A DNA stretch of 64,000 bases, taken from contig CAVRCF010000001.1 in assembly GCA_963719505.1 (NCBI GenBank), positions 832,001 to 896,000 on the forward strand, in the 5' to 3' direction. The translations under genes were made by a program, and so were the position numbers. The stretch is from Halobacteriovoraceae bacterium (GTDB taxonomy: Bacteria; Bdellovibrionota; Bacteriovoracia; Bacteriovoracales; Bacteriovoracaceae). The first letter of the stretch is position 1, and each line of letters opens with the position of its first letter. This document shows, piece by piece, positions 2,484-10,610 of the stretch. Below the pieces are notes generated by a model. It saw only the letters and a program-made list of their open reading frames with translations, made no database searches and had not been told where the DNA came from.

Positions 2484-4361
2484 ATGAATTTAACTGCTGT
2501 GTTACTATTTCTGATTTCCTTTTCAATATTTGCAAAAGGGCTTCCCGCAAGCTTTGGGGGAAAAACACGTAACGCGTGTGAGATTGCCTTTGTTAAAGTT
2601 CTCAACGGAAAAATTCCAGCTCAAAAATCAGGTTTAGCTTCTCTCAACTATTGGGATGAGAGATTTGATCCAAAAATGGTGATGGATGATGTTCAGGCCC
2701 TCCCAGATAATGAATCAAGGCTTTTATTTTTAAAAGAACTTCAAAAGCTTGTTCATAAAGACCAAACATTCGTGGATAATGTCGCATCCACTGCAAGTCT
2801 TATGGTGGAGCGAAAACTCCTTAACTTATCAGATATTAAAAAAGTCTTTCTTTCTCCAAAATTTAATAATGTTACTTACTTTTACTCAAAATCCACGAAA
2901 ACTCTAACGGGCAAGCTGGATGTTGATACGGATAAGCTAGGTGTCATCAATGAAATTGTGAGTAAAGCAAAGCTTTCAAAAAATCGGGCTAAAGAATATA
3001 CAGACATGATGTTGCAAAGTAATAGAACGATTGAAGATTTCGAGCTAGCACTTGAGCACGGCTTTAAGCTCAGAGACGATATTCGCTCTCAAGAGCAGCT
3101 TAGGCACTATCTGGAGTTTTTAGATAATGCAAAAGCGGCCAGAGTAAAAAATGGTATGAAGCAAATTGAAAAAATTTATGATTTTAATTACTCACAGCGC
3201 TTTTCAGTTATTGATGAGGTGCTGCCTGTTTATAAGAAATTCCTTGGTCAAAAATCTCGTGTTAACTCTTTTGAAAAAAGACGAGTGGCAGAGATTGAAG
3301 AGGGCTTAAAAATGCAGATGAACAAAGAGCATATTAAAGAGCTCGATGATCTTGTTGCAAGAAAGGCGAAAGGGGAAGAAGTAGATCCGGAAAAGGTAGC
3401 TGCTCTTCGTAAAAAAATAAATGATAATGAGTTGCCAAAAAATCTCAAAAAGAGAGCTCTCTCCCAGGCAAAAGGTGAGAAGTCTATCTTTAGAAAACTC
3501 ATGAGTGGATGTGGCTCTGGTGGGGGAAAGCGTCTGGCCGGAGCTAAGAAAAAGTTTATACGTTTTAAATTTGCTGTGGGACTCGTTGGAACACCAATCT
3601 TTTACTACATGAAAAACAAAGATAAAATTGACGTTGATGATTATTGGTATGAAAAACTTGGGTACGAGTGGACGGCAAGCATCGTCTTTAGTTACTTCGG
3701 TGGAAAGCTAGTGACTGGAAACGGAGGCTTTCTCAATAAGTACCTCAAAGGATTTTTTATCTTTCGAGGAATGGATGGGGTAAGTTCACTCTCTTACGAT
3801 ACGCTTTTTGGTAAAAGTAAGCATATTCGAAAATTTATGCAAATCTATCGAGATGATCTGCCTGAAAATGAAATTGAAGCTGAGTTTAATAAGCTTTTAG
3901 AGAGTCCTACATTTGAAAAAGACGTCCGTGGGCTTTTGGCCTACCTCGATAAAAAGACAAAAGAGAGAAATACAAAGTTCTTCATCGATAAATACTTCAA
4001 TACCTCAGCTTATAATTCTCTAGAAAGTGATCGTATCACCCAAGAAGATCTTGAAACCGAAGAGGGTAAAGAGGTGATGATGGAATTATTAGCAGAGAGA
4101 ATGTATATGGAGAGCATGGGGAATTCACCTTACTTCTCTACCGGTAATAGTGGTGGGGATCGGTGGAGCTTCTATGCTGCTCGAGCAACATTTTGGGATC
4201 TAAAAAGTCTGGCTTTCAATCTAGCTTTGTTTCAAATCATGTGTAAAGAGCCCTTTGGAAAAGTGGGGTCTTGGGGTGCTGTCATTGCTCTTTACTTAGG
4301 AGATCAATGGCTTTCAGGTAACTTGACCTACTCATGGCGTAGAGACGCTATAAATCAGTAG
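2484..4361 (+). CDS. Hypothetical protein with signal peptide, helical body and several C-terminal hydrophobic segments
   Basis: 625-aa ORF; no family recognised. Confidence 0.75.
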   Translation: MNLTAVLLFLISFSIFAKGLPASFGGKTRNACEIAFVKVLNGKIPAQKSGLASLNYWDERFDPKMVMDDVQALPDNESRLLFLKELQKLVHKDQTFVDNVASTASLMVERKLLNLSDIKKVFLSPKFNNVTYFYSKSTKTLTGKLDVDTDKLGVINEIVSKAKLSKNRAKEYTDMMLQSNRTIEDFELALEHGFKLRDDIRSQEQLRHYLEFLDNAKAARVKNGMKQIEKIYDFNYSQRFSVIDEVLPVYKKFLGQKSRVNSFEKRRVAEIEEGLKMQMNKEHIKELDDLVARKAKGEEVDPEKVAALRKKINDNELPKNLKKRALSQAKGEKSIFRKLMSGCGSGGGKRLAGAKKKFIRFKFAVGLVGTPIFYYMKNKDKIDVDDYWYEKLGYEWTASIVFSYFGGKLVTGNGGFLNKYLKGFFIFRGMDGVSSLSYDTLFGKSKHIRKFMQIYRDDLPENEIEAEFNKLLESPTFEKDVRGLLAYLDKKTKERNTKFFIDKYFNTSAYNSLESDRITQEDLETEEGKEVMMELLAERMYMESMGNSPYFSTGNSGGDRWSFYAARATFWDLKSLAFNLALFQIMCKEPFGKVGSWGAVIALYLGDQWLSGNLTYSWRRDAINQ

Positions 4362-4470
4362 AAAATCTCACTTTGAATTGAATTTTTGATCTATAATGAT
4401 AAACTTCTATAAATTCGTTTAACTCACTTCACAAGGTAAAGTCTTATTATTATAAGTCTAAAAATAACAT

Positions 4471-5142
4471 ATGAATGATTTTGAAGTTAAATATGTTAAT
4501 GTTAATTTGAAAGCGCCTATTGCTAAGAAATGGCTTGATTTAAACCTCATCCCTGATCCCAAATATCCAGGAACGATTATTTCCAGTATTTACTTTGATA
4601 CAAAAGACTTTAAGTATTTAGATGAAAAAACTGAGAGTGATCATGTTAAATCCAAGTTTCGAATAAGATGGTACGAAACCTTAGACAAAAAAGAACCAAG
4701 TTCAGTTAGTTTTTTAGAATTCAAACATAAAGTTGGTGAAAATCGTTTTAAAAAAAGAATTCAAGTCAGTAATGATTTTTTCTCAAAGCCTCTAGAGTCC
4801 TTAGACTTTTTGAAGAGTTTAGACGAGCTTCGACTCTTTAATGGAAATATCTTGGAGCATATTTATCCTAGTTTTATCGTAAGCTATACTCGATATAGAT
4901 ATATTATCCCTAATACTGATATTCGACTTTGTATTGACTACAATATAAACGTTCCAAAACTGAATTCTCGTTTACTTCCTATGAAAATTAAGAAAAAGTA
5001 TTTATCACAATGTGTATTTGAATTAAAAGGGGAGAGTGCTATTTTGCCATCTGCTTTGCGTAATATTGAACAGCTTGGCTTTGAGAAAAATTCTTTTTCA
5101 AAATACGAGAGATGTTTCGAAGAATTAATAAATAATATTTAG
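4471..5142 (+). CDS. VTC-domain (polyphosphate polymerase / TTM fold) protein
   Basis: FEVKY, ISSIYFDT, KFRIRWY, FLEFKHK, VSYTRY, IRLCID, VFELK and FSKY motifs of the bacterial VTC domain. Confidence 0.85.
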   Translation: MNDFEVKYVNVNLKAPIAKKWLDLNLIPDPKYPGTIISSIYFDTKDFKYLDEKTESDHVKSKFRIRWYETLDKKEPSSVSFLEFKHKVGENRFKKRIQVSNDFFSKPLESLDFLKSLDELRLFNGNILEHIYPSFIVSYTRYRYIIPNTDIRLCIDYNINVPKLNSRLLPMKIKKKYLSQCVFELKGESAILPSALRNIEQLGFEKNSFSKYERCFEELINNI

Positions 5143-5150
5143 GAGAAAAA

Positions 5151-5846
5151 ATGGAATCATATTTTAATTTAAAAATTTTAAGTAATACAGGTATTCAAAA
5201 AATGGCCGACATCGGTCTTCTACCTTTTTTCTTATTATTACTAGCATCGCTTATTTCTTCCCTTTTTATTTCTCATCTCTATTTAAGGTTCTGTGGAAGT
5301 AAAGGAACAGGATCAACTCTTCATAGAGCTTTTCCACTTCTGGGTGTCGCTATTACGTCCATTTTTGTGAGTCTGCAGTTCTCTGTTCCTCTATCTCTTG
5401 GGCTTTTAGGGGCGCTATCAATTGTAAGGTTTAGAACACCAATTAAGGATCCGGAAGAAGTAGGCTTTATCCTTCTTGTGATTGCTTCAAGTCTAACTTG
5501 TGCAACGTTCAATCTGCCCTTTCTCATTCTTATTTTTGTCGTTTCTATATTGGGACTTATCATTTTAAAGTTTGACAAAAAATATTTCAAGAGGACGAAG
5601 AATACGGGGATGATCATCGTGAATCTTCAATCATTGGCATACAGTAAAAATAGTACACAAGTAATGACAGTTCTCGAGTCTAAAGCACAAAATCTAAAGA
5701 TTGATAGTATTGTAGAAGATGATGAACACACAACTCTATCTTACACTTTTGGAGCGATGGAGAACCATAGTTTTGCCTCTCTTAAAGAAGAACTATATGC
5801 GCTAGATAGTTCCTCAAAGATAAATATCTTTTTTAATAAACAGTGA
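5151..5846 (+). CDS. DUF4956 membrane protein
   Basis: About 4 TM helices; signature LSLGLLGALSIVRFRTPIKDPEE; C-terminal soluble domain. Confidence 0.85.
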   Translation: MESYFNLKILSNTGIQKMADIGLLPFFLLLLASLISSLFISHLYLRFCGSKGTGSTLHRAFPLLGVAITSIFVSLQFSVPLSLGLLGALSIVRFRTPIKDPEEVGFILLVIASSLTCATFNLPFLILIFVVSILGLIILKFDKKYFKRTKNTGMIIVNLQSLAYSKNSTQVMTVLESKAQNLKIDSIVEDDEHTTLSYTFGAMENHSFASLKEELYALDSSSKINIFFNKQ

Positions 5847-7228
5847 TCAATTTAAAGACTATTGGCTTTTTCATTCTTATCGTTCTATGTGGACTCATCC
5901 CCAAGATTTTAAATGGGCAAAAGAAGTATAAAAAAGCGCTTGATATTTACTACGCGCAATCTGAAGATGCCCAGTCGGTTTATACAGGTAAAGTCCGTGA
6001 TGTTTTTGATCCTCTGGATGAGGCATACCAAATCTCTTCAAGTCTCAAAAATCTCATTGATGTCAAACGTCCTCTGTTTAGTGAAGATTCATCTGTCTGG
6101 CCTATTATATCTTTGTGGGTAGATCCAAGAGATCTTTACTCGGAAGAGCGAGGGATCATTACTCATGGGTATAAAAAAGGACGCCTTTGGGAGAGAGCAA
6201 GTTTTGTTGACTACTTTAAAGATAATGAAAATGTCTTTAAAACTTTTGCCGGCCTGAGGCAGCATGGAGGTACAAGTCGTAATGAATCTCAAAAGATAAA
6301 AAGTTTTCGCGTGTACTTCAAACAAAAATATGGGGCAAGTGAGTTTATAAATAGTGAAAAAATAAGTTTAAGCTCCAAAGCTAAAATCAAAAGACTTGTT
6401 ATCAAAAGAGATATCTATCTTCATTTTGGAAACTCATTTTCATTTTTCTTTATCAACTCTCTAGGGGGGCTTGCCCCCAAGGTTGAGCTTGTAAAACTTT
6501 ATATCAACGGAGAGTTTTACGCCTATCATATGATGACAGAACATTTAAGTCGTGAACAGTTAAAATTTTACTGGGGACATGAAGATTTTCTTTTCGCAAA
6601 AATTAAAGGAGATCAAGATATCCATTCGCGTATCCTTTATAAAGACCTAAGGTCAAAGCTAGAGACAAGTCGTGATATTAGTTTTGAATATGTCGATAGT
6701 AGAGTTGATATGGACACTGTTATGGCATCTTTACTAGTAATCATGTACACGGGGATGACTGACTGGGCCCAAGGGGTTTATACGAAAGATATAAAAAGAG
6801 ATTCAAAGTGGAAGCTAATCTCATGGGATTTTGACAGAGCTTTTTTTCCTGTGAATGGGGAGAGTGTGAGATCTGGGATGCAGTTTGATTCAGAGATGAA
6901 AAGTGTTGGTCTTGGGATGGATATGAAGAAAGGTCAAATTAGGTGGTCTATTTTTAACCGGCTCATCAAAAAGGATGTACGATTTAGAGAATATTTTTCA
7001 AATCTTGTAGATAATCTTTTTGATAAAATTCTAAAAGGTGACTCATATAAAGCATTTTTGGCAAAAGCTGAAAAGCTAACACTATCTGCAAACGATCCCA
7101 AAATGAATAGCGACCTAAAAAGAATAAAAGATTTTATTAAGTTTAGAAAAAAAACACTTTGTGACGATCTCAAAGTGCGGGTTAATCTTGTACCTAAGAC
7201 ATGTCTTCGAGAGGCTTTGACGAGGTAG
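5843..7228 (+). CDS. CotH-family kinase with N-terminal membrane anchor/signal
   Basis: RQHGGTSR..KSFRVYF, VKLYINGEFY...TE, WKLISWDFDRAF; GTG start overlaps the upstream stop (GTGA). Confidence 0.8.
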   Translation: MINLKTIGFFILIVLCGLIPKILNGQKKYKKALDIYYAQSEDAQSVYTGKVRDVFDPLDEAYQISSSLKNLIDVKRPLFSEDSSVWPIISLWVDPRDLYSEERGIITHGYKKGRLWERASFVDYFKDNENVFKTFAGLRQHGGTSRNESQKIKSFRVYFKQKYGASEFINSEKISLSSKAKIKRLVIKRDIYLHFGNSFSFFFINSLGGLAPKVELVKLYINGEFYAYHMMTEHLSREQLKFYWGHEDFLFAKIKGDQDIHSRILYKDLRSKLETSRDISFEYVDSRVDMDTVMASLLVIMYTGMTDWAQGVYTKDIKRDSKWKLISWDFDRAFFPVNGESVRSGMQFDSEMKSVGLGMDMKKGQIRWSIFNRLIKKDVRFREYFSNLVDNLFDKILKGDSYKAFLAKAEKLTLSANDPKMNSDLKRIKDFIKFRKKTLCDDLKVRVNLVPKTCLREALTR

Positions 7229-7433: not shown

Positions 7434-10400
7434 CTAGCCAATAAGAGACTGAAAATCATTCATTGTTAATTTACCATTAAAGAAATTGTCTTGGTCTGTT
7501 GCCATGAGGTCTTTAAAGAGATCCTTTTTGGCATTTTGTAAGACGAGAACCTTCTCTTCAACAGAATCCTTAATAATAGGGCGGTAGACGGTGAGTTTAT
7601 TCTCTTGCCCAATTCTATACGCTCTATCGATAGCTTGATTCTCAACAGCTGGGTTCCACCAAGGATCCATTAAAAAGATATAACTAGCGGCTGTGAGGTT
7701 TAAACCAACACCACCGGCCTTAAGGGAGATAAGAAAAACTTGGGCATCACCCTCTTGAAAACGTTCAACTTCTTGCCCACGTTTTTTAAGAGTCTGGGAT
7801 CCATCAATTCTTGCTTGCTTCCATCTTCTTTCTTGAATCTTATTTTGAATAATATCCAAGTAAGTGGTGAACTGTGAGAAAACGAGAACTTTATGTCCCT
7901 CATCAATTAGCTGCTCTAGATTTTCCATAAGAAAATCAATTTTTGTTGAGTGCATGAACTGCTGATTCTGCCAAAGACAGAGTTGTCGAAGCTTTAAGAG
8001 ACTTTTGAGAATTTCTGAATACTTTCTTCCGTTTTGAACGGTTGTCATATTCTTTCTCACATTTGCAAGGGTTGCAAGGTAGTGCTCTTTTTCTTCTTTT
8101 TTAAAGTTCAGATAAACATGGTTTTCAACTTTCTCAGGAAGCTCGGTAAGAACTTCTTGTTTTGTTCGTCGAAGAATAAAAGGTCTTACTGTTTGACGAG
8201 CGAGGAGACGACTTTTCTTTGAAGACTTTGTTTTGAAAAAGCTCATCTCTCCCCAAATGCCAGGGATACTTAAGTCCATAATATTGTAAAACTCAGAAAG
8301 ATCATTTTCTACAGGTGTACCTGTCAGGCATATTCTAAACTTGGCTTTTAAATTTCGGGCCGCACTAGCGCCTTGAGAGCGAATATTTTTAAGATGTTGA
8401 ACTTCATCCATGATAAGAACGTCAAATCCTACATCATTGAACGTGGTGAAGGATTCTTTTTTCATGACCCCATAACTCGTAAGAATAATTTTTGAATCAG
8501 TTGGATCGGTTCTATCTGTCCCATAGTAACAGTGAACATCTAGGTCTGAGAATTTCTCGATCTCTTTTTGCCAGTTAATAAGAATAGAGACCGGACAAAC
8601 GATGAGAACCTTATTTACGCGAGTCTCAACCGATTGGAGAAACATTATTGTTTGAAGAGTTTTCCCAAGTCCCATATCATCGGCAAGACAGGCTCCAAAG
8701 CGATTTTCAAAAAGGAAGGATAACCACTGAAAACCTGTGTTTTGATAATCACGAGCAATCGTCTTGTACCTCTCTGGAAGATCGTAGTGAGGCATATCCT
8801 TAAGGTTGAGAAGGTTGTGACAAAGCTGCTCTTCTTCTTCCGTCAAAGCTCCTTCAATACCGTGTTTCTTTAGTTCAAAAAGCTCAAAGATTCTGGTTCT
8901 TTTAAAGTTTAAGGAGAATCTTTTCGCCTTATTACCTTCCATCTCTTTTGCGCTTGCTTCATGGTCAGTATACTTTTTCATGAACTTTAAAAGGTCTTTT
9001 TCTTTCTTCTCAAGAATGACAAGCCCTTGATCGGTGAGGATGAAATTCTCTCCCATAGAGGCATTCTTTATAACTTGAAGGTCTTCATCATCGACAACGA
9101 GATTGAGCTCAAACCAATCCAAGTTAGACTTTCTTCTTTCAAAACGAATATTTGAACTCCACGTCTTTACTTCGGTGTCGTTGTAAAAAATAGGAATATT
9201 GAAATGGCTCATGCGGTTATGAAAAGATGAGACTCCGTTAAAGAGTTGATTTTTTGGAATCTGAAAATAAACCTTTTCATCATCAGCTCGGTTGAAAGAG
9301 AATCGGCTCGCATTTTCTCCAAAGCATTCAAAGACACCTTTAAAGATCGCCCAGAACTTATTTTTTGGAAGATAATAGATCACCCCAGGCTTTTTCGTCA
9401 TAAAAGGGATGTCGTCATTGTCCATGGCAAAATCAAACCAATCTTGAAATTTTTGTTTTTGAGAGTTGGCGTGCAGATATTTTTTATATTCTTGATTATT
9501 ATAATTAAGGGAATCAAGCAGATGCTTTACAAATTCATGGGAGTCATTTTTTGTTCTAAAGCCCCCTAAAAAACCACCATCACTAATCATGAGTTTAAAA
9601 ACGGGTGGTGGAGGTAAAAGTCTGTTTTCATTATCAAAGAGTTCAATATGGAGCTCTAGAAAACTTTTTCGCTCTCCAGTGAGAATAGAGAATCTAAAGT
9701 TTACATCTTTGGCTTCTAGTTCATTGAATTTAACTCCATCAATAGAGAACTCGATACCGTCCTCGTCTATGATGGCTGTACTCCATCTTAGGAACTCATT
9801 GATCGGTTGAAGAAACCCCTCTCGTGTCACTCTTTTAACAAATTCTTTTAAACTTGTAGGGAGATCAAAAGCTTCACCGGTTTCCCAGTTAAACAGGTAG
9901 AGGTACTCAAATAAAGAGACCTTCTTTAATTCTTCCCCTTGGTTATTTTCAATAGAGAAAACAGGAAGATATTTATTCTCAATTAAAGGATAGGTTTGAT
10001 ATTCTTCAAAATTTACCGCTTTAACAAGATTCACTTTTATTTTATTTTCAGATTTTTTCGTCAAGGGGAAGTTGACGATCTTTCTATTTGTTAACAGATA
10101 CTGAACCGACGCGTAGGTACTATTGGGTTTTGCCCCAATGAGCTTTGCCGGGTTTGGAACAATTCGCCCATAGCTTTCCACGTGGACGCCCTGACCGTGC
10201 ATCGTCAATTCTGGTCTTAGAGGAGCGTCGCTATTTTCTTTAAGTTCTTCTTTTAGGACTTGATTGAGATGAAATTTATAGAACAAAGCCGCTGTGTGAG
10301 GACAGTGGTTTTCATCTGAGTGAAGGTTACAAGTGCAGCTGGTGCTTAGCATGCCTTCTGGATAAGTTTCATTTTTCTTATAACTTGCTTTGGCTTCCCG

Positions 10401-10610
10401 AGTTTCACCATCGTTGACAATCCCTGAGATAATAAAAAATCTCTCAGGAGATCCTTTTTGAAAGGAGATGTTAATTCTGGCATTTTCCAAAACTTTCTTC
10501 GCGTGAATTATCAGTGTATTAGAGAAGAATTTTTTACCTTCTTCGAGAATTGCTTGAGAGACAACATTCATTGAATTCGGCCTTTTTACGCTTAGATTTA
10601 AAAGTCTCAT
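7434..10610 (-). CDS. SWIM zinc-finger / SNF2-family helicase-like ATPase
   Basis: CTC...HCPH SWIM motif; LADDMGLGKT, DEVQ, TGTPVEN, SLKAGGVGLNL, QAIDRAYRIGQ. Confidence 0.92.
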   Translation of the reverse strand: MRLLNLSVKRPNSMNVVSQAILEEGKKFFSNTLIIHAKKVLENARINISFQKGSPERFFIISGIVNDGETREAKASYKKNETYPEGMLSTSCTCNLHSDENHCPHTAALFYKFHLNQVLKEELKENSDAPLRPELTMHGQGVHVESYGRIVPNPAKLIGAKPNSTYASVQYLLTNRKIVNFPLTKKSENKIKVNLVKAVNFEEYQTYPLIENKYLPVFSIENNQGEELKKVSLFEYLYLFNWETGEAFDLPTSLKEFVKRVTREGFLQPINEFLRWSTAIIDEDGIEFSIDGVKFNELEAKDVNFRFSILTGERKSFLELHIELFDNENRLLPPPPVFKLMISDGGFLGGFRTKNDSHEFVKHLLDSLNYNNQEYKKYLHANSQKQKFQDWFDFAMDNDDIPFMTKKPGVIYYLPKNKFWAIFKGVFECFGENASRFSFNRADDEKVYFQIPKNQLFNGVSSFHNRMSHFNIPIFYNDTEVKTWSSNIRFERRKSNLDWFELNLVVDDEDLQVIKNASMGENFILTDQGLVILEKKEKDLLKFMKKYTDHEASAKEMEGNKAKRFSLNFKRTRIFELFELKKHGIEGALTEEEEQLCHNLLNLKDMPHYDLPERYKTIARDYQNTGFQWLSFLFENRFGACLADDMGLGKTLQTIMFLQSVETRVNKVLIVCPVSILINWQKEIEKFSDLDVHCYYGTDRTDPTDSKIILTSYGVMKKESFTTFNDVGFDVLIMDEVQHLKNIRSQGASAARNLKAKFRICLTGTPVENDLSEFYNIMDLSIPGIWGEMSFFKTKSSKKSRLLARQTVRPFILRRTKQEVLTELPEKVENHVYLNFKKEEKEHYLATLANVRKNMTTVQNGRKYSEILKSLLKLRQLCLWQNQQFMHSTKIDFLMENLEQLIDEGHKVLVFSQFTTYLDIIQNKIQERRWKQARIDGSQTLKKRGQEVERFQEGDAQVFLISLKAGGVGLNLTAASYIFLMDPWWNPAVENQAIDRAYRIGQENKLTVYRPIIKDSVEEKVLVLQNAKKDLFKDLMATDQDNFFNGKLTMNDFQSLIG

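Follow-up and report, generated by a model that had tools for sequence, protein, structure and literature searches.

A VTC-DUF4956-CotH operon in a Halobacteriovoraceae bacterium and its possible role in phosphate transfer across the inner membrane

The window analyzed here is a 64,000-nucleotide (nt) stretch (C1:832001-896000) of the 3.69-Mb, 5-contig genome of a Halobacteriovoraceae bacterium, with a completeness of 83.5%. At positions 4471-7228 it carries three genes on the same (+) strand, which encode, in this order, a VTC-domain protein, a DUF4956 membrane protein, and a predicted membrane-anchored kinase of the CotH fold. Our best explanation of this trio, with a probability of roughly 0.38, is that the three genes form one operon for a phosphate-transfer module that spans the inner membrane: polyphosphate (polyP) would be made inside the cell, carried across through DUF4956, and used by CotH outside. 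The gene set is real and widespread in bacteria, and it has already been published, without a mechanism in the available portions of the two reports (PMC7112168, PMC12345266). The window trio is a clean, minimal member of this known but uncharacterized cassette. To the published picture we add cross-phylum statistics of gene order, a D-x-x-Q-G signature of the CotH subfamily, and a standalone context in which no Pel, PPK1, or PPK2 genes were found.

Gene order and conservation of the cassette

The elements of the trio, as called from open reading frames (ORFs), alignments, and direct reading of the sequence, are the following:

4362-4470, + strand: AT-rich intergenic region of 109 nt located 5′ of the VTC gene, candidate for the presumed promoter region of the operon
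4471-5142, + strand: VTC-domain protein, 223 amino acids (aa), ATG start, Pfam PF09359
5141-5145, + strand: Shine-Dalgarno sequence AGGAG of the DUF4956 gene, overlapping the VTC stop codon, 5 nt before the ATG at 5151 (read directly)
5151-5846, + strand: DUF4956 membrane protein, 231 aa, ATG start, Pfam PF16316
5331-5525, + strand: ultra-conserved DUF4956 core, residues 61-125, including LSLGLLGALSIVRFRTPIKDPEE (alignment of 33 homologues)
5843-7228, + strand: predicted membrane-anchored CotH-fold kinase, 461 aa, GTG start, Pfam PF08757
5843-5920, + strand: N-terminal hydrophobic anchor of CotH, residues 1-26 (Kyte-Doolittle), helix 2-23 in the model, N-terminus kept in homologues
6758-6781, + strand: CotH catalytic loop TDWAQGVY, T306-Y313, with the presumed catalytic Asp D307 and invariant Q310 and G311
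6824-6835, + strand: CotH WDFD motif, W328-D331, presumed metal-binding Asp region, equivalent to WDYD of B. cereus CotH

The genes are tightly packed. The TAG stop codon of the VTC gene (5140-5142) is followed by a gap of 8 nt (gagaaaaa) before the DUF4956 gene, and the GTG start of CotH (5843-5845) overlaps the TGA stop of DUF4956 (5844-5846) by 4 nt, giving GTGA at the junction; both junctions were read directly. This layout is exactly the one given in a preliminary description of this DNA, and the three family assignments made there also stand, as all three proteins match Pfam families above the curated cut-offs: the VTC protein matches PF09359 (E value 2.7e-21, 76.7 bits, cut-off 23) with the first 36 profile positions unmatched, the DUF4956 protein matches PF16316 (E 3.9e-13, 49.9 bits, cut-off 30.6), and the CotH protein matches PF08757 (E 6.4e-11, 42.8 bits, cut-off 23.8) over profile positions 1-320 of 322. 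NCBIfam contains no model for any of the three. The G+C content is ∼32-37% across the region, and a scan for consensus promoters and terminators gave no sites above the level of shuffled sequences (10 sites, shuffle mean 11.2).

The conservation of the arrangement was analyzed with a DUF4956 alignment that was scanned against one genome per species. This yielded 449 relatives, and the best 80 loci, those closest to the query, were scored with hidden Markov models built from our own alignments, so that the figures apply to this DUF4956 subfamily rather than to DUF4956 genes in general. The loci span Bdellovibrionota, Desulfobacterota, Spirochaetota, Planctomycetota, Acidobacteriota, Verrucomicrobiota, Gamma- and Alphaproteobacteria, Bifidobacteriaceae, and others. 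The complete trio, which the preliminary description had recognized from other bacteria, occurs at 73 of the 80, and at 70 of these 73 the genes follow the order VTC-DUF4956-CotH on one strand. VTC and DUF4956 alone are found at five loci, two of them at contig ends, and DUF4956 and CotH alone at two, one of them at a contig start. The gaps between the genes are mostly a few bases long, the commonest DUF4956-CotH spacing being -4 to ∼20 nt. In the genome studied here each of the three families has a single match, and all three matches are adjacent. Since each family is single and the same order recurs across phyla, the adjacency is not a product of chance. Among 14 control genomes, VTC and DUF4956 occur in the same three (B. 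thetaiotaomicron, C. glutamicum, and M. acetivorans), and CotH occurs in those three plus B. subtilis. In 41 related genomes, including the one that contains the window (G000), VTC was found in 10, DUF4956 in 8, and CotH in 6. At all ten places where DUF4956 occurs in these genomes, a VTC gene lies on the same contig within ∼4 kb, and five of the ten are full trios (G000, G002 twice, G019:C145, and G038).

Genes for glycan synthesis are frequent neighbors at the 80 loci. The commonest neighbor clusters are GT2 (21), NAD-dependent sugar epimerases (14), flippase-like LPG_synthase_TM proteins (13 and 9), GT1/GT4 glycosyltransferases (12), GT-C-like PMT_2 proteins (5), and hexapeptide acyltransferases (5). 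Among the related genomes, the G038 trio lies in a polysaccharide cluster, and one of the two copies in G002 lies behind an AlgX-like acetyltransferase. At ∼10 Desulfobulbaceae-type loci (among them L031, L038, L039, L040, L043, L046, L047, L048, and L054), a second DUF4956-like gene (∼275-300 aa) is inserted between DUF4956 and CotH, which accounts for the DUF4956-CotH gaps of ∼850 nt observed there.

CotH is absent from three of the 80 loci that have enough flanking DNA to hold it (L026, L037, and L072), and it is not adjacent in the following variants from related genomes:

L005:4446-8960 (G012:C1): CotH-less, HlyD-type variant
L006:3620-8012 (G019:C133): CotH-less, HlyD-type variant
L004:3639-8059 (G009:C25): CotH-less, HlyD-type variant
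L014:826-4719 (G007:C153): variant with no adjacent CotH

The HlyD-type variants consist of DUF4956, a 571-593-aa protein, a 374-399-aa protein, and a high-scoring VTC protein (135-148 bits); a 1150-1170-aa protein without a family lies upstream. The 571-593-aa protein is composed of a HlyD-like adaptor half (HlyD_D23, E ∼1e-7, at or just under the cut-off) and a β-propeller half. The 374-399-aa protein was considered as a TolC-like component, but this was unconfirmed, with no Pfam match even at E ≤ 1. In the G007 variant, a right-handed β-helix protein (374 aa) precedes VTC and DUF4956, which are followed by an ATP-grasp/L-amino-acid-ligase-like protein (387 aa). A lone high-scoring VTC gene was also observed (L010:290-5467, G010:C88), preceded by proteins of 538 aa, 233 aa, and 558 aa (the last with a weak HEAT match) and without DUF4956; the 233-aa ORF was rejected as a hidden DUF4956 (hhalign probability 0.3%). 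The VTC/DUF4956 pair can therefore function in the absence of CotH, as at the three loci and in the HlyD-type variants. This pair is the core of the cassette, and CotH is its most frequent but replaceable partner.

The replaceability of CotH is what would be expected if VTC and DUF4956 made polyP and exported it as an end product, to end up bound to the surface or extracellular, much as polysaccharides are secreted by synthase-dependent systems. CotH would then not be fed by polyP and would modify, anchor, or regulate another envelope component or bind the polymer. The constant core, with a HlyD-like adaptor in the place of CotH or with the β-helix and ATP-grasp proteins as partners, is consistent with such a secretion system, as are the three loci with room for CotH that lack it, and an adaptor of this type fits the export of a VTC/DUF4956 product. 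Set against this, 73 of the 78 loci with both VTC and DUF4956 also contain CotH, in most cases translationally coupled to DUF4956, no outer-membrane duct gene was found by Pfam beside the trio in the window, and the Asp residues of catalytic type are invariant in CotH, which makes it look like an active enzyme that depends on the VTC/DUF4956 pair. We regard polyP secretion as rather unlikely.

Family membership, fold, and conserved residues of the three proteins

The VTC protein is a member of the Vtc4-type triphosphate-tunnel family, as judged from its sequence. In an alignment of 28 homologues, 42 columns are invariant, and they alternate between basic and acidic residues as in a triphosphate tunnel. 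When distant bacterial VTC proteins are added, 20 invariant columns remain, 19 besides the initial Met (M1, E5, K7, Y41, D43, R64, R66, Y68, E83, K85, K94, P133, Y139, R141, R152, D156, E184, K186, S210, and K211), and those assigned to the tunnel are E5, K7, R64, R66, E83, K85, K94, Y139, R141, R152, D156, E184, K186, S210, and K211. A profile of the 28 homologues reaches yeast Vtc4 (3g3q, E 1.1e-5) with the RxRWY and YxR strands aligned. In single-sequence searches of the Protein Data Bank (PDB), the VTC protein matched Vtc2 alone (E 0.073), and a type-b VTC protein gave no match. No hydrophobic segment was found with the Kyte-Doolittle scale, and the Pfam scan detected no SPX domain, no fused membrane domain, and no CYTH match. 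The protein is thus in agreement with the soluble, cytoplasmic tunnel protein with basic motifs that had been proposed, with the Vtc4-like residues retained. It is a candidate polyP polymerase, of a family whose sequences do not separate polymerases from hydrolases.

The inventory of polyP genes is compatible with such an activity. No match for PPK1 or PPK2 was found in the genome, and Ppx-GppA has two matches. Given the 83.5% completeness, the VTC protein is best described as the sole candidate polyP synthase found in it. Of the 41 related genomes, 11 contain PPK1; the four genomes of this genus are without it. A correlation between the absence of PPK1 and the presence of VTC was considered and is not supported, as most of the relatives lack both.

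The DUF4956 protein has 3608 relatives at E ≤ 0.001. An alignment of 33 homologues drawn from several phyla shows 45 invariant columns along the full length, which cluster in residues 59-125 and include P80-P97, K99, P101-E103, and G105-I107, with the motif LSLGLLGALSIVRFRTP-K-PEE. The AlphaFold2 (AF2) model, of moderate confidence (predicted local distance difference test (pLDDT) score 70.8), contains five helices (residues 23-51, 56-75, 81-95, 101-118, and 122-141) followed by a β-α-β-β-α-β domain at the C-terminus. Residues 147-231 match ACT-type folds with VIA-align (Z scores of 9.9 for 2nzc and 9.3 for 1zpv) and also with Foldseek. The matches of both programs are confined to this C-terminal domain, and none is informative over the membrane part. 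The model thus predicts 4-5 transmembrane (TM) helices and a C-terminal cytoplasmic ACT/ferredoxin-like domain. The preliminary description was right in calling DUF4956 a membrane protein, but its estimate of roughly four TM helices falls short of the five helices of the model and left out the C-terminal domain. A five-helix topology would place both conserved basic loops, R46-R59 and R93/R95/K99, on the cytoplasmic side, provided that the ACT-like domain and the Lys/Arg-rich linker following the last helix are cytoplasmic. A prediction of the DUF4956-VTC complex scored 0.00 against a mark of 0.32 and, being without controls, carries no weight either way.

The architecture of DUF4956 leads to a second alternative, in which the cassette serves regulation or energy sensing and exports no polymer. 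DUF4956 would be an MgtC-like regulator in the membrane that binds a ligand with its ACT domain, the VTC protein would be a hydrolase of tri-/polyphosphate or a tunnel enzyme that processes nucleotides, with its product or substrate being sensed, and CotH would phosphorylate envelope targets from another donor. The C-terminal domain of DUF4956 resembles those of MgtC proteins (Z 8.0-8.4), although this fold is common and the similarity is therefore weak evidence. The MgtC Pfam model gives below-cut-off matches with other DUF4956 genes in two relatives (E 9.9e-5, 5.4e-4, and 2.7e-4), and a stored DUF4956 homologue has an Atlas score of 0.79 for an MgtC cluster, which is sub-threshold and serves as a lead only. 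The available part of an mBio 2025 study on the streptococcal trio describes its DUF4956-like protein as MgtC-like plus ACT, and it reports that deletion of the DUF4956-like gene or of CotH in S. intermedius cuts aggregation by >50% in artificial sputum medium; in that part, no such defect is described for the VTC deletion (PMC12345266). On the other side, the DUF4956 protein itself has no MgtC (PF02308) match at E ≤ 0.01, and a profile comparison of DUF4956 and MgtC reaches a probability of only 13% (hhalign, E 0.0022, 147 co-linear columns). The genome contains a separate, genuine MgtC-family gene (E 7e-37; G000:C4:225745-226119; L099:1207-1989, - strand), and in its tunnel residues the VTC protein resembles Vtc4 and not the CYTH hydrolases. 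The near-invariant 45-residue membrane core of DUF4956 suggests a conduit or a catalytic site, and a regulatory module would leave the extracytoplasmic kinase without a donor. We consider this alternative improbable and take the link between DUF4956 and MgtC to be an architectural resemblance and not family membership.

The CotH protein is distant in sequence from characterized homologues, as a phmmer search with the single sequence found no match in the PDB and a profile reached 5jd9 at an E value of 0.02 only, so that a structure comparison was needed. Its AF2 model (pLDDT 87.6) matches 5jda in Foldseek (E 2.0e-12), and VIA-align superimposes it on B. cereus CotH (5jd9) over the whole domain, with 316 of 358 residues aligned, a Z score of 26.6, and a root-mean-square deviation of 3.2 Å. 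The next families are CtkA (11.3), PI4K-II (∼11), HipA (∼10), and Fam20 (Z 9.3-9.8). This full CotH kinase fold, together with the hydrophobic N-terminus, agrees with the anchored CotH kinase that had been proposed. In 25 homologues, the invariant residues are G113-R118 (GRLWER), R139, H141, G142, R146, D307, W308, Q310, G311, W328, D329, D331, C440, and C454. In B. subtilis CotH, substitution of D228 or D251, which are 23 residues apart, kills activity, according to the part of the source available (PMC7821199). The corresponding spacing here is 22 residues for D307-D329 and 24 for D307-D331. From motif and spacing rather than from a residue-level structural alignment, D307 is presumed to be the catalytic Asp and WDFD to contain the metal-binding one.

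The catalytic loop differs from that of typical CotH proteins, which in a relative aligned to 5jd9 reads NFDGFVHNY ... WDYD. In the loop of the window protein (D307-W-A-Q-G-V-Y313), the Asn at +5 is absent, at a position that varies, and the aromatic Y313 at +6 is kept. The string TDWAQGVY had been described as lacking the usual Asn-Tyr; it is present at residues 306-313 and the Asn is indeed gone, but the Tyr is retained. Among 75 CotH ORFs located next to DUF4956 at the 80 loci, which come from many phyla, 64 contain D-x-x-Q-[GA] followed by W[DN]x[DN]. The other 11 comprise two with D-x-x-Q-G and YDMD, three that are cut by contig ends, and six that are split, truncated, or deviant. The signature is absent from a secreted, standalone CotH of the relative G011. 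The D-x-x-Q-G loop is a sequence signature of the trio-linked CotH subfamily, and the place of the missing Asn is probably taken by the invariant Gln at +3. The loop was earlier taken as a hint of an altered donor or substrate. Because it is subfamily-wide and the Gln at +3 probably replaces the Asn, it says little about the donor by itself. Two CotH genes, in an Arenicella metagenome-assembled genome (MAG) (L061:3563-5119, - strand) and a Parasphingorhabdus MAG (L088:2860-4356, - strand), lie in divergent orientation upstream of VTC and are without D-x-x-Q-G; the loop of the latter is SSDLNDWALV ... WNFD.

These residues also bear on the proposal that the CotH-like protein is not a phosphotransferase at all but a pseudokinase, a binding protein, or a scaffold, for example an adhesin like fungal CotH. 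The missing canonical Asn of the catalytic loop and the distance from characterized CotH proteins would fit such a role. The invariance of D307, Q310, G311, and W328-D329-x-D331 in the 25 homologues argues for an enzyme, and the conservation of the two motifs in 64 of the 75 linked ORFs across phyla is a mark of an active site. A non-catalytic CotH appears very unlikely.

Of the 70 linked CotH ORFs that are 400 aa or longer, 65 have a hydrophobic N-terminus, and the five exceptions resemble mis-set starts or truncations. In the N-termini inspected from other phyla, Arg/Lys residues precede the helix and in several (e.g. L027, L032, and L064) an acidic residue directly follows it, which indicates an N-in, C-out signal anchor. 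The invariant C440 and C454 near the C-terminus fit an oxidizing compartment. By homology, the catalytic domain of the window protein is taken to be periplasmic.

Proposed mechanism and flanking genes

In the reading that we favor, the soluble, Vtc4-type VTC enzyme would most likely use a nucleoside triphosphate to polymerize polyP on the cytoplasmic side of the membrane. DUF4956, with its TM helices, conserved basic loops, and ACT-like domain, would contact the VTC protein and take the chain, or its phosphoanhydride energy, across the membrane. The signal-anchored CotH on the outer face, where adenosine triphosphate (ATP) is not pooled, would use this supply to phosphorylate an envelope target or to attach phosphate chains to it. 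The target is more likely to be a surface glycan or glycolipid than a protein of the spore-coat type. Gene anatomy, family and fold, the residues of catalytic type, the anchor, and the synteny are observed, and each biochemical step of this reading is inferred. The reduced aggregation of the S. intermedius DUF4956-like and CotH mutants, the glycan genes at the other loci, and the HlyD-like adaptor of the variants also speak for it. We know of no ATP supply outside the cytoplasmic membrane of bacteria, and exported kinase-fold enzymes are common; the cassette would offer a testable answer to the question of where their phosphoryl donor comes from. If the reading is true, the cassette would be a third bacterial polyP route beside PPK1 and PPK2. 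The stronger formulation, that VTC and DUF4956 make up a "synthase-dependent" polyP machine and that the D-x-x-Q-G CotH proteins are the first to use polyP instead of ATP among kinase-fold enzymes, is more speculative still and should be regarded as doubtful; it would explain the phosphorylation of glycans or proteins outside the cytoplasm, and the cassette would be the only polyP route in this genome, as far as PPK1 and PPK2 were searched for and not found.

Several observations weigh against the favored reading. Other triphosphate-tunnel enzymes are hydrolases or cyclases, and to our knowledge no kinase-fold enzyme uses polyP as a donor. DUF4956 is unrelated to the eukaryotic VTC channel, and the pLDDT of its model falls below 50 at residues 77-79 and 94-97, within the most conserved stretch. 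The preliminary description had spoken of a split bacterial VTC complex. Because DUF4956 shares no homology with the membrane domain of eukaryotic VTC and looks MgtC-like in architecture, this term can be kept as an analogy only. In the clade of the window, the CotH anchor is followed by a Lys-rich flank (KILNGQKKYKK), for which the positive-inside rule favors the opposite topology. The CotH-less loci and HlyD-type variants described above also weigh against the reading, as does the S. intermedius VTC deletion, and a Pfam scan of the neighbors found no glycan gene adjoining the trio in the window. Finally, searches of the literature on DUF4956, on CotH together with VTC or polyphosphate, and on bacterial VTC polymerases brought up, among the matches listed, no paper that assays any of the three proteins or shows how the cassette works.

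As the gene set is already in print, this one instance is of limited value in itself. It is nevertheless a minimal example, with three genes, no glycan neighbors, and no PPK1 or PPK2 found in the genome, and the families of the cassette are also present in the tractable C. glutamicum and B. thetaiotaomicron.

The genes that flank the trio are housekeeping or unrelated according to Pfam and include, in addition to those listed here, rpoD and dnaG:

1195-1614, - strand: small DUF3015 protein (E 2e-33), adjoining QueC and unrelated to the trio
1668-2402: QueC (Pfam)
2484-4361, + strand: exported 625-aa protein without a family, with a signal-peptide-like N-terminus
7434-10610, - strand: SNF2-family helicase of 1058 aa, convergent with the trio

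The 625-aa protein has a long Lys/Glu-rich center and a hydrophobic C-terminal part and belongs to no Pfam or NCBIfam family. It was rejected as a fourth component of the cassette, since BLAST found no homologue of it in any of the 80 loci. The top NCBIfam rows for the helicase (pilus-regulating Snf2, SCO1167 family, and ZorD) are all far under their cut-offs; a 34%-identical helicase precedes the second copy of the trio in the relative G002 (L021). The named homologues of all three proteins of the trio are from Halobacteriovoraceae/Bacteriovoracaceae MAGs (e.g. tags CME62_08665 for VTC and CME62_08675 for CotH), and these names bear out the non-sporulating, Gram-negative host that had been suspected, here of a predator lineage.

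Comparison with known systems

When the CotH protein is compared with the Bacillus kinases (5jd9/5jda; B. subtilis D228/D251), the whole-domain fold, the catalytic Asp, the WDxD motif, and their spacing correspond. Sequence identity is 15-16%, however, the loop is D-x-x-Q-G instead of D-x-x-x-x-N, and the protein has an N-terminal membrane anchor. Its gene is tied to VTC and DUF4956 and not to substrates of the CotB/CotG type. The host is non-sporulating, and a spore-coat role, previously called unlikely, is implausible in a member of the Halobacteriovoraceae. The Fam20-type kinases of the secretory pathway, which include the glycan kinase Fam20B, share the kinase-like fold (Z 9.3-9.8) and a catalytic domain outside the cytosol, and a glycan substrate is plausible here from the gene neighborhoods; the fold similarity is only distant. 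Fam20-type kinases use lumenal ATP.

The eukaryotic VTC complex (3g3q, 7ytj, 8i6v) contains the same tunnel-domain family (Pfam VTC), with RxRWY and YxR strands that can be aligned, and likewise combines a soluble catalytic domain with a membrane protein partner. In contrast to its subunits, the VTC protein described here is a soluble protein of 223 aa without SPX or DUF202-type TM domains, and its membrane partner is from another family, as it matches DUF4956 only. MgtC/SapB proteins (PF02308; 2lqj, 7qa5) resemble DUF4956 in their layout of several TM helices and then a small ACT-like domain in the cytoplasm, with sequence signals that are weak but co-linear; the DUF4956 protein of the window differs from them in having no Pfam MgtC match, and a true MgtC gene is present elsewhere in the genome.

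The closest published counterpart is the accessory gene set of Gram-positive pel loci. In the accessible portion of Whitfield et al. 2020 (PMC7112168), cotH, a "polyphosphate polymerase" (VTC), and DUF4956 are listed together with DUF4832 as accessory genes of these loci, and in S. intermedius the trio is SIR_1592-1594 (mBio 2025, PMC12345266, available in part). As far as these parts of the sources go, the same three families are contiguous in both settings, CotH is predicted to be extracytoplasmic, and DUF4956 combines TM helices with an ACT-like domain in the cytoplasm. The differences are that the host here is a Gram-negative predator, that no PelG match was found in its genome (83.5% complete), that no DUF4832 or glycan gene is adjacent, and that the CotH protein, of 461 aa, is without an FN3 domain. 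The window trio is contiguous with neither pelDEADAFG nor a DUF4832 hydrolase; its neighbors are QueC, the 625-aa protein, and the SNF2 helicase. The glycan-gene neighborhoods at the other loci agree with the published Pel link and with NELoc-2 of C. perfringens, in which the arrangement lies beside a chitin-synthase-like gene (PMC2879425). None of the 21 commonest neighbor clusters of the 80 loci matches a Pel family. The mBio 2025 authors remark, in the part of their paper available, that the trio was not found outside Pel loci (PMC12345266). The window and the Pel-free neighbor clusters contradict this remark, as both show the trio outside Pel loci.

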